From: Candidatus Woesearchaeota archaeon
Lineage (GTDB): Archaea; Nanobdellota; Nanobdellia; Pacearchaeales; GW2011-AR1
Assembly: GCA_964651965.1 (NCBI GenBank)
Contig: CAZYZS010000003.1
Location: 36,625 to 100,624, forward strand
Length of the DNA: 64,000 nt
Direction of reading: 5' to 3'
Part shown: positions 36,862 to 37,650 of the stretch, piece by piece
Layout of the letters: every line of letters starts with the position of its first letter
How positions within the stretch are numbered: position 1 is the stretch's first letter
Position numbers and translations under genes: made by a program
The notes under the pieces: model-generated
Database searches by the model: none
Seen by the model: only the letters and a program-made list of their open reading frames with translations
What the model was told of the DNA's origin: nothing

Positions 36862-37650
36862 ATGTTAAAAGGAGGCGACACAGAAACAATCGAAGATCTC
36901 TGGAAAGCCTACCATCAAGGAAGAGCGCAAGGCGATGGGCAAGTTTATAAAAATCACTTAATAGAACGCTACCGAGATTTAGTAAAATACGCAGCAGAGC
37001 GACTTCATGAAAAACTTCCAGATAAAGTAGAATTAGACGATTTGATTTCTGCTGGGACTTTCGGTTTAATAAATGCTATAGAAGCCTACGATCCCGAACG
37101 AGGAGTTAAGTTTGAAACTTACTGCGCACCAAGAATTAAAGGCTCAATTTTAGATGAATTAAGAAGAATGGACTGGGCTCCAAGACTGATGAGAGCAAGA
37201 GCCCAGCAGCTGACAAAAGCAACTCACACCCTAGAAATGCGCCTTGGAAGAACGCCAAATGACGAAGAACTAGCAGAAGAGCTAAATATGGGCAGAGAAG
37301 AATATAAAAGGCTAAGAAGAGACGCAGATGCAGCAGCACTTTTCTCTTTAGAAAACCCGACCAGTTCAGATGAGTATGACGGAGAAAAAACTTATTTAGT
37401 AGATGAGCTTGATAATCAAAGAGCAGAAGATCCAGTTTTAGAAGTTCAAAAAAGAGACCTTCAAGAATTATTAACAAAAGGCCTGGCCCGCGCAGAACGA
37501 TTAATAATTGCTCTCTATTATTATGAAGAGATGACAATGGAAGAAATAGGCGCAGTCCTAGATTTAAGTCAATCACGAGTAAGCCAGCTGCATGCCTCAA
37601 TTATTGCAAGATTAAAAGTCAGAATAAGCCCAGGGCACTTGCAGCTATAA
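36862..37650 (+). CDS. fliA: RNA polymerase sigma factor, sigma-28 (FliA/WhiG) family, bacterial type
   Basis: Region 2 [50 protein letters not shown], region 3 [18 protein letters not shown], and region 4 [41 protein letters not shown]. Confidence 0.9.
   Translation: [262 protein letters not shown]

Follow-up and report, generated by a model that had tools for sequence, protein, structure and literature searches.

How does a bacterial type of transcription factor come to be encoded in an archaeal chromosome, and what could it do there? Initiation by sigma factors is a defining trait of bacterial transcription, whereas archaea use TBP and TFB. The question is raised by a stretch of 64,000 nucleotides (nt) from a Candidatus Woesearchaeota archaeon (contig CAZYZS010000003.1 of assembly GCA_964651965.1, positions 36,625 to 100,624 of the forward strand), which we call the window and number from its first letter. 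At positions 36862–37650 it carries a gene that an earlier note, made from the sequence alone, had described as an intact bacterial sigma-28 factor gene, acquired horizontally and either repurposed inside the archaeon or acting on the RNA polymerase (RNAP) of a bacterial partner. We find that the gene is a genuine member of the FliA/WhiG family by both sequence and fold, and we trace its history in related loci.

The phenomenon as such was already reported in 2021, so that the question of the earlier note whether such genes were known in this lineage can be answered with yes. Castelle et al. (2021, Front Microbiol, PMC8204110) described sigma-70-family genes (fam00359) in DPANN archaea (named from Diapherotrites, Parvarchaeota, Aenigmarchaeota, Nanoarchaeota and Nanohaloarchaeota), ‘particularly prevalent in Woesearchaeota’; in its passages on sigma factors, that survey excludes mis-binning, records no anti-sigma factors in the sigma-carrying DPANN and calls the controlling mechanism unclear. 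Our literature search returned no report beyond this one, and none on FliA-type genes in DPANN. The window gene is a further, unusually well-resolved example. Like the genes of the survey (PMC8204110), it lies on an archaeal contig in a Pacearchaeota/Woesearchaeota-type genome and poses the same puzzle. Whereas the corresponding passages of the survey's main text (PMC8204110) contain no subfamily, donor, selection or promoter analysis, the window gene can be placed as FliA/WhiG-type, and its clade has a Sedimentisphaerales-like donor, members in three lineages, one duplication and one probable loss.

Identity and selective constraint of the sigma gene

The gene and its parts are as follows.

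36862–37650, plus strand: FliA/WhiG-type (sigma-28, group 3) sigma factor gene, 262 amino acids (aa), from profile, structure and selection tests
36925–36936, plus strand: codons of A22-Q-G-D25, an insertion of four residues by which the archaeal sigma group is recognised (alignment)
36958–37176, plus strand: sigma region 2, residues 33–105 (Pfam r2); in bacteria the core-binding helix and -10 recognition and melting
37204–37383, plus strand: sigma region 3, residues 115–174 (Pfam r3), followed by the 3.2 linker, residues 175–206; the least constrained part
37480–37617, plus strand: helix-turn-helix of sigma region 4, residues 207–252 (Pfam r4); the -35-binding module in bacteria

The reading frame runs without interruption and contains the region 2, 3 and 4.2 peptides. 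Sigma70_r2 (61.7 bits), Sigma70_r3 (42.6 bits) and Sigma70_r4 (54.9 bits) of Pfam match in canonical order, all above the gathering score, and region 1.1 is lacking. With the NCBIfam model TIGR02479 (FliA_WhiG), the protein reaches 246.1 bits (cut-off 189.6), residues 33–254 covering positions 1–222 of the model's 224, and with NF005413 (FliA) it reaches 215 (cut-off 201). By sequence, the closest solved structure is Streptomyces WhiG (6PFV, 183.8 bits over query residues 9–256); further solved relatives are the FliA proteins of E. coli, Pseudomonas and Aquifex. In an AlphaFold2 (AF2) model based on 42 homologues, the helical sigma2, sigma3 and sigma4 domains are confident and the 3.2 linker is disordered (predicted local distance difference test score, pLDDT, below 50 at residues 161–190), and a Foldseek search with this model gives SigD, WhiG and sigma28 as best matches at probability 1.00. 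The reading frame, Pfam, TIGR02479 and Foldseek therefore bear out the description of an intact 262-aa frame with its sigma-70 regions in order, and the profile search proposed along with that description gave scores above the cut-offs for the Sigma70_r2, r3 and r4 and the FliA/WhiG models alike.

In architecture, sigma2-sigma3-sigma4 with no region 1.1, the window protein resembles bacterial FliA (E. coli 6PMI, P. aeruginosa 9WSM, Aquifex 1RP3), to which it is about 40% identical in the case of E. coli and 63–70% in the case of Sedimentisphaerales-type FliA. Unlike these proteins, it is found in an archaeon with archaeal transcription machinery, behind an archaeal leaderless promoter, and has the 4-residue N-terminal insertion; there is no flhG, flagellar gene or FlgM near it and no sigma-28 promoter in the DNA scanned, and it carries 25 substitutions at bacterial-invariant sites, including K208 to E and H to Q at the R98 position. 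In Streptomyces, WhiG is controlled by the anti-sigma factor RsiG together with cyclic di-GMP (c-di-GMP) and drives sporulation genes. The structures of the RsiG-WhiG-c-di-GMP complex (6PFV/6PFJ) provide the best sequence match among structures and are among the top fold matches; unlike Streptomyces WhiG, however, the archaeal sigma gene has no RsiG-like gene beside it, and its small neighbour orf92 is without detectable similarity to known families or folds.

Among 5.8 billion clustered proteins, this sigma group is found in three archaeal lineages, in four copies. One is the window gene. Two, sig1 and sig2, belong to a relative lineage that has been assembled three times (L002, L003 and L004; ENA, JGI and Logan), and the fourth belongs to a third lineage (L007; Logan). 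For the sigma genes of the window and L002, the nonsynonymous rate dN is 0.20 and the synonymous rate dS 0.98, giving an approximate dN/dS of 0.21 (bootstrap confidence interval (CI) 0.13–0.31); for the neighbouring genes in the same comparison, dN/dS is 0.058 for minD (dS 0.98) and 0.042 for metG. The parts of the protein compare as follows.

sigma2: dN/dS within archaea 0.06; window identity to the bacterial consensus 86% (bacterial mean 95%)
sigma4: dN/dS within archaea 0.12; window identity 83% (bacterial mean 99%)
sigma3 and linker: dN/dS within archaea 0.36–0.50; window identity 58–59% (bacterial mean 87–90%)

These values indicate that the gene is under purifying selection, strongest on the sigma2 and sigma4 modules. 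All frames are intact in the three lineages and in the paralogue despite a dS of about 1–2. A dN/dS of 0.21 and intact orthologues agree with the earlier claim of intactness, and the gene is not decaying.

The protein has nevertheless changed where bacteria do not. The alignment has 151 columns with at least 98% conservation within the bacterial clade; at these, we counted 12 substitutions in L002 sig1, 25 in the window copy, 39 in L007 and 53 in L002 sig2, against a bacterial mean of 0.47. Mapping the DNA contacts of E. coli sigma-28 (bioRxiv 10.1101/2020.01.02.893370) onto the alignment, we observed that the equivalents of T69, R74, R84, R94 and R220 are kept in all four archaeal copies. The window protein equals the donor consensus at 11 of the 13 mapped -10/-35 contact positions, and six of its mapped contacts differ from E. 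coli yet equal the consensus of the donor clade. The equivalent of K208, a -35 phosphate contact, is E227, a reversal of charge, and the R98 position, His in the donors, is Gln. Since purifying selection goes together with altered bacterial-invariant sites, the gene does not appear to be a neutral relic, and the rules of its constraint seem to have changed after transfer.

The second copy of the L002 lineage has a remodelled 5' end (L002 2909–3733): an in-frame stop follows the ancestral ATG, and a new start preceded by a Shine-Dalgarno (SD) motif opens a 252-aa product. Its region 4 is only 48% identical to the bacterial consensus and its region 2 86%, which suggests neofunctionalisation of DNA specificity.

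Origin, insertion site and probable loss

The best 120 matches to the window protein among the 5.8 billion clustered proteins are FliA, 63–70% identical. Only two of these 120 bear an organism name, and both are from Sedimentisphaerales (Planctomycetota); the donor assignment is based on these two NCBI-named proteins and on gene context. The least-diverged archaeal copy, L002 sig1, is 72–76% identical to FliA encoded on contigs of GC content 0.58–0.63. Together, these comparisons support as donor clade a GC-rich, Sedimentisphaerales-type FliA of Planctomycetota. At third codon positions, the GC content of the archaeal copies is 0.27–0.34 (window 0.29), matching their hosts, and that of donor-type fliA genes is 0.78–0.93. 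The synonymous sites have thus been completely recoded, and the transfer is therefore unlikely to be recent. The donor clade also includes low-GC bacteria (L085); among bacterial genes, however, those most similar to the archaeal copies are all GC-rich, so that host-like GC remains valid as evidence of amelioration. Members of the donor clade share a JGI metagenome, Ga0315277, with the archaeal contig L003.

The 4-residue insertion (A-Q/R-G-D) is present in all four archaeal copies and absent from 135 aligned bacterial homologues and 80 metagenome loci. About 25 derived residues are likewise common to the four copies and essentially absent from bacterial homologues. These shared features indicate one acquisition, followed by duplication in the L002 lineage. 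A point that weighs against this view is that a neighbour-joining (NJ) tree with bootstrap grouped the archaeal copies in 0 of 100 replicates, a failure that we attribute to unequal, strongly differing rates. As the tree has no archaeal clade, the claim of a single origin rests on the insertion, the shared derived residues, synteny and an element upstream of the gene (below). The comparison with bacterial FliA that the earlier note had suggested was accordingly divided in outcome: the identities of homologues point to Sedimentisphaerales, and the NJ tree lacks archaeal monophyly. Horizontal acquisition itself, as that note had proposed, is upheld by the Sedimentisphaerales-type FliA donor, amelioration, synteny in three lineages and a host-type promoter.

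The surroundings of the gene bear on its authenticity and on the site of insertion.

36048–36794, plus strand: archaeal-type minD (TIGR01969 minD_arch), native, upstream of sigma in all three sigma-bearing archaeal lineages
36793–38021, no strand: 1.23-kb block with sigma and orf92, absent from L009 (window/L009 DNA comparison)
37683–37961, minus strand: orf92, open reading frame (ORF) of an orphan small protein, convergent with sigma and next to sigma in L002 too
38029–38115, minus strand: tRNA-Val(CAC) with a 15-nt intron at 37/38 (Rfam RF00005), downstream boundary of the inserted block
38174–40066, minus strand: metG (methionyl-tRNA synthetase; NF008900, 669.9 bits), convergent partner of minD across Woese-/Pacearchaeota relatives

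The host is archaeal. The window encodes TFS, aRF1, RadB, L15e, NAC, archaeal TopA and RpoL, and since its longest ORF is 1051 aa there is no gene of rpoB or rpoC size in the 64 kb; in both respects the archaeal context had been read correctly. With MinD as anchor, the nearest species-representative genome is Candidatus Pacearchaeota archaeon RBG_13_36_9 (L009), followed by metagenome-assembled genomes of Woesearchaeota and Pacearchaeota, which makes the host a DPANN archaeon. DNA flanking the sigma block is 80–85% identical to RBG_13_36_9. The window minD scores 231.6 bits with TIGR01969 (cut-off 201.75), and its product is 90–91% identical to those of L002 and L009, 71% to that of L007 and 26% to the FlhG that precedes fliA in a donor-type bacterium. 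The synteny of minD and metG is kept in L002, L007 and L009–L013, the last five being related Woese-/Pacearchaeota loci. The tRNA gene matches RF00005 with 52.5 bits and has, in its anticodon loop, an 18-nt stretch where three are expected; ARAGORN names its L002 homologue tRNA-Val (cac), and the intron-containing tRNA-Val that had been reported at this place is confirmed. From the minD stop (36794) to the sigma ATG there are 67 nt, and from the end of the sigma gene to the tRNA (38029) there are 378 nt. Both distances had been given exactly, with the 92-aa minus-strand ORF at 37683–37961 inside the second overlooked.

In L002–L004, the order is minD, sigma (277 aa), orf89 (minus), a NUDIX gene (minus), tRNA-Val (minus), the second sigma gene and metG (minus); in L007, minD is followed by sigma (259 aa). 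The source contig that encodes the window sigma is 157 kb long, and an independent Logan contig (L001) also has the order sigma, orf92, metG. Could the sigma block nonetheless be a chimera of assembly or binning, or integrated cargo of a mobile element or virus? In favour of this, the block lies in a variable interval right beside the 3' end of a tRNA gene, IS66 and LAGLIDADG genes are at most about 6 kb away in L002, and contig L001 begins at window position 36807, 55 nt upstream of the sigma gene and inside a palindrome. The junction of minD and sigma recurs, however, in four independent assemblies (ENA, JGI and two Logan) of two other lineages, which excludes a chimeric join and contradicts one of the outcomes that the earlier note had named as refuting its reading. 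The base composition of the sigma gene is that of the host. There are no repeats flanking the block, no integrase gene and no duplicated tRNA fragment; a search of IMG/VR gave no match, plasmid and phage relatives are at most 41% identical, and PADLOC and PHROG return nothing specific. We therefore reject an origin in a mobile element or defence system, and consider chimera and mobile cargo, taken together, to be very improbable.

Homology between the window and L009 ends at 36792, in the minD stop codon, and returns at 38022, at the tRNA. The corresponding interval of L009 contains neither a run of N, as at an assembly gap, nor a sigma remnant, and the interval between minD and metG carries differing, lineage-specific cargo in L009–L013. 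We also rejected the possibility that flhG and fliA were transferred together: because the window minD is archaeal-type, only 26% identical to donor FlhG and homologous to L009 up to its stop codon, it is native and not chimeric. Distances of minD to the window, as dS, are 0.73 for L009, 0.98 for L002 and 2.08 for L007. Since L009 is as near to the window as L002, and the sigma-bearing L007 is the outgroup, the absence from L009 is most simply a secondary loss; the sigma gene was probably lost there, and would therefore be useful but dispensable.

Two observations concern the neighbours of sigma on either side. In donor-type bacteria, fliA directly follows flhG, which encodes a MinD-family ATPase, at 28 of the 62 loci with enough upstream sequence, and the archaeal sigma gene follows a native minD (window 36048–37650, L005 6999–8798 and metagenome loci L025–L104); the parallel is either coincidence or selection for linkage. 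In L007, an ORF of 184 aa with hydrophobic, membrane-like segments lies directly 3' of sigma on the same strand (2159–2713, plus); it has no family match, and neither the window nor L002 has a conserved counterpart. In bacteria, the same-strand slot directly downstream of sigma is typical for membrane anti-sigma factors.

Promoter, palindrome and possible function

Two elements lie in the interval between minD and sigma.

36795–36816, plus strand: perfect 9+4+9 palindrome AAATAAACT-TTTT-AGTTTATTT, 46–67 nt upstream of the sigma ATG, unique in the window
36831–36842, plus strand: TATA-like box GCTTAATATTTA, with its centre near -25 relative to the ATG; read as an archaeal-type promoter whose mRNA is leaderless

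A TATA-like sequence with the geometry of the surrounding archaeal genes had been noted before, and it was located as TTAATATTTA at 36833–36842, with GCTTAATATT centred at -25 from the sigma ATG. This is the modal position in the host: in genes with an upstream spacer of at least 40 nt, the best TATA-like 8-mer is most often centred at -25. An SD-like motif precedes only about 6% of host genes, so transcripts are taken to be mostly leaderless. The sequence AAGCTTAATAT is conserved before the sigma genes of the window and L007 and before L002 sig2. The palindrome recurs identically before L002 sig2 (L002 2861–2882), a gene not preceded by minD, and in L007 (about 1087–1108) it reads GAATAAACT-TTCT-AGTTTATTC, where the outermost pair has changed in a compensatory way. 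Because it has been kept while coding DNA of the sigma loci is only about 70–75% identical, the palindrome appears to be under constraint, and may be an operator, an upstream activating sequence or a hairpin for the sigma promoter. Both arms include TAAAC, similar to TAAA, the -35 half-site of sigma-28.

Hallmarks of a sigma-28 system are absent from the DNA that we scanned, which comprises the 64-kb window and related loci. A perfect -10 octamer, GCCGATAA, does not occur in it. The search for sigma-28-type promoters that had been suggested earlier gave no enrichment: bipartite TAAA-N15-GCCGATAA sequences number 14, against 16.7 ± 5.5 in shuffles. Octamers with one mismatch are 46 against 31 ± 5 expected, and most lack the essential -13C/-12G. 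The neighbours of the sigma gene are the archaeal minD, the orphan orf92, the tRNA and metG, with no FlgM- or RsiG-like anti-sigma gene and no flhF, flhG or flagellar context in this neighbourhood. Regulon promoters, anti-sigma factor and flagellar context, the three hallmarks sought, are thus all missing within the scanned DNA.

These observations support the following history. The ancestor of a small Pacearchaeota/Woesearchaeota lineage within DPANN acquired fliA once from a GC-rich, Sedimentisphaerales-type planctomycete, and the gene was inserted into the variable interval between minD and the convergent tRNA-Val and metG. It was then recoded to host base composition, came under a leaderless TATA promoter of host type and was inherited vertically, with duplication in one lineage and probable loss in another. 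Because no bacterial core RNAP, FlgM or sigma-28 promoter was detected here and many invariant residues are changed, the protein is most likely no longer a canonical holoenzyme subunit. It has probably been retained instead as an accessory, sequence-specific regulator that uses the DNA- and protein-binding surfaces of sigma2 and sigma4, with the palindrome upstream of its promoter as a candidate control site. We give about an even chance to this reading, in which the protein has been repurposed within the archaeon as an accessory regulator and works through the conserved sigma2 and sigma4 surfaces.

Several points tell against this proposal. In the absence of core RNAP, a free sigma factor is generally a poor DNA binder, and a role in DNA binding alone leaves unexplained why the helix of region 2.2 that binds the core has hardly changed. 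The negative results for bacterial RNAP and FlgM cover 64 kb of the genome. With dS near saturation, absolute dN/dS values are approximate, and at least one close relative, L009, does without the gene.

In one alternative, sigma would engage archaeal RNAP, for example at the clamp coiled-coil of Rpo1/A', and serve beside TBP and TFB as an alternative factor for initiation or promoter selectivity. The Rpo1/A' clamp coiled-coil is homologous to the beta' clamp helices, which are what region 2.2 binds. Sigma2, including the region 2.2 helix, is selected as strongly as minD (0.06) despite the absence of beta', sigma4 is also conserved (0.12), and the gene has persisted through speciation and duplication. 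Set against this, there is no precedent, sigma3 and the 3.2 linker, which thread through bacterial RNAP, are relaxed, no sigma-28-like promoters are enriched, the gene is missing from L009, and conservation of sigma2 may reflect no more than fold stability. We regard such a role as unlikely. A particular form of it, a hybrid factor whose sigma2 docks on the archaeal clamp coiled-coil while sigma4 reads DNA, perhaps the TAAAC-containing palindrome of its own gene, is slightly less likely again; if true, a DPANN archaeon would possess a hybrid bacterial/archaeal factor for promoter selection. That the protein does nothing, being a leftover not yet inactivated or weakly constrained, is likewise unlikely. 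The gene does evolve 3.5–5 times faster than its flanking genes (dN 0.20 against 0.057 and 0.072), is altered at many bacterial-invariant sites, is absent from L009 and has no detected partner or regulon; but a dN/dS whose upper confidence limit, 0.31, is well below 1, the value of 0.06 in sigma2, frames intact in three lineages and a paralogue at a dS of about 1–2, and the conservation of promoter and palindrome while coding DNA has diverged to about 70–75% identity all argue for function.

The remaining alternatives give the protein a bacterial RNAP to work with. A symbiont or parasite might deliver a FliA mimic to a bacterial partner and reprogramme flagellar or late-gene transcription there. 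In line with this, identity to Sedimentisphaerales FliA reaches 76% (in the L002 copy), the residues for core binding and -10 contact are the same as in the donor clade, and that clade co-occurs in one metagenome. The protein has no signal peptide and no secretion-associated neighbour, though, and between 25 and 53 bacterial-invariant FliA positions are altered, -35 contacts included, which would be odd in a mimic obliged to suit the core and promoters of its host; full amelioration shows the transfer to be old, and the DPANN with known hosts are, according to the survey, episymbionts of other archaea (PMC8204110). We consider delivery to a partner improbable, and of the two possibilities in the earlier note the data lean to repurposing inside the archaeon. 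Nor does it fit well that the protein should serve as canonical sigma factor to a bacterial-type core RNAP whose genes lie in another part of the genome, even if none of the sigma domains is missing and most contact residues are still of the donor type: archaeal RpoL and TFS are in the window and an ORF of rpoB/rpoC size is not, sigma-28 promoters were not found, and the passages on sigma genes in the DPANN survey name TBP, TFB and TFE beside them and do not mention RNAP subunits (PMC8204110). This we hold to be extremely improbable.

That the archaeon has kept a sigma gene under purifying selection, through speciation and duplication, implies a use for the protein in the absence of its canonical partner. 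The locus is a compact test case, with a known donor clade, four diverged archaeal copies, a defined promoter and a candidate operator, and L009 offers a natural knockout relative for comparison. It makes testable whether the sigma factor binds DNA alone, binds archaeal RNAP or targets a bacterial partner.

Neighbouring genes and further observations

The small protein orf92 belongs to a family with only three members among 1.84 billion representative proteins. One homologue adjoins the L002 sigma gene (L002 1942–2211, minus; 48% identity, dN/dS 0.34), and the third member, in L008 (1124–1393), lies near a LAGLIDADG gene on a 1.9-kb contig without sigma. There is no match in Pfam, NCBIfam, PHROG or PADLOC; the AF2 model (pLDDT 63.5) has a beta-beta-alpha-beta-beta arrangement, and comparison with PDB folds gave no match. 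L007 is without orf92, and for that reason orf92 is not an obligate partner of sigma. A role as anti-sigma factor is unsupported, given the lack of a family or fold match, the three relatives, the absence from L007 and the occurrence in L008 without sigma.

The metG gene looks mosaic. Its 3' part (38022–39073) has 80% DNA identity to RBG_13_36_9, while the whole protein (window 38174–40066 against L009 6149–8005) is only 64% identical; for comparison, the minD of L009 is 91% and the metG of L002 88% identical to the window. This pattern suggests recombination or partial xenologous replacement within the gene. On the other side of the locus, an uncharacterised ORF of 141–166 aa with the motif MPLERIMKEKTSADHLLYVSLKYTKTCDV (window 35463–35963, plus) always precedes minD in L009–L012, and L013 has a diverged version. 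Searches of Pfam, PHROG and PADLOC gave no match for this ORF, which may encode a conserved partner of archaeal MinD.

At 40119–40200 of the window, ARAGORN calls an 82-nt tRNA-Gly(CCC) that Rfam does not list at the gathering threshold. In L002 (7442–8666), the halves of the homologous tRNA-Gly sequence are split by an insert of about 1.1 kb, which encodes a LAGLIDADG endonuclease and ends in a complete tRNA-Gly copy (8501–8572); the arrangement resembles a tRNA gene into which a homing endonuclease or an integrative element has been inserted. Further downstream in the window (44142–50179, plus), four clustered genes with ORFs of 1051, 266, 437 and 264 aa have a third-position GC content of 0.17–0.22, against about 0.30 elsewhere, and may have a different history or expression level; that they form a purine-biosynthesis operon is a guess from their N-terminal sequences. 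Two tRNA genes, at 3057–3151 (plus) and 54049–54157 (minus), are long according to Rfam (95 and 109 nt) and presumably contain introns, and the former is misread by ARAGORN, which gives it a four-base ‘anticodon’.

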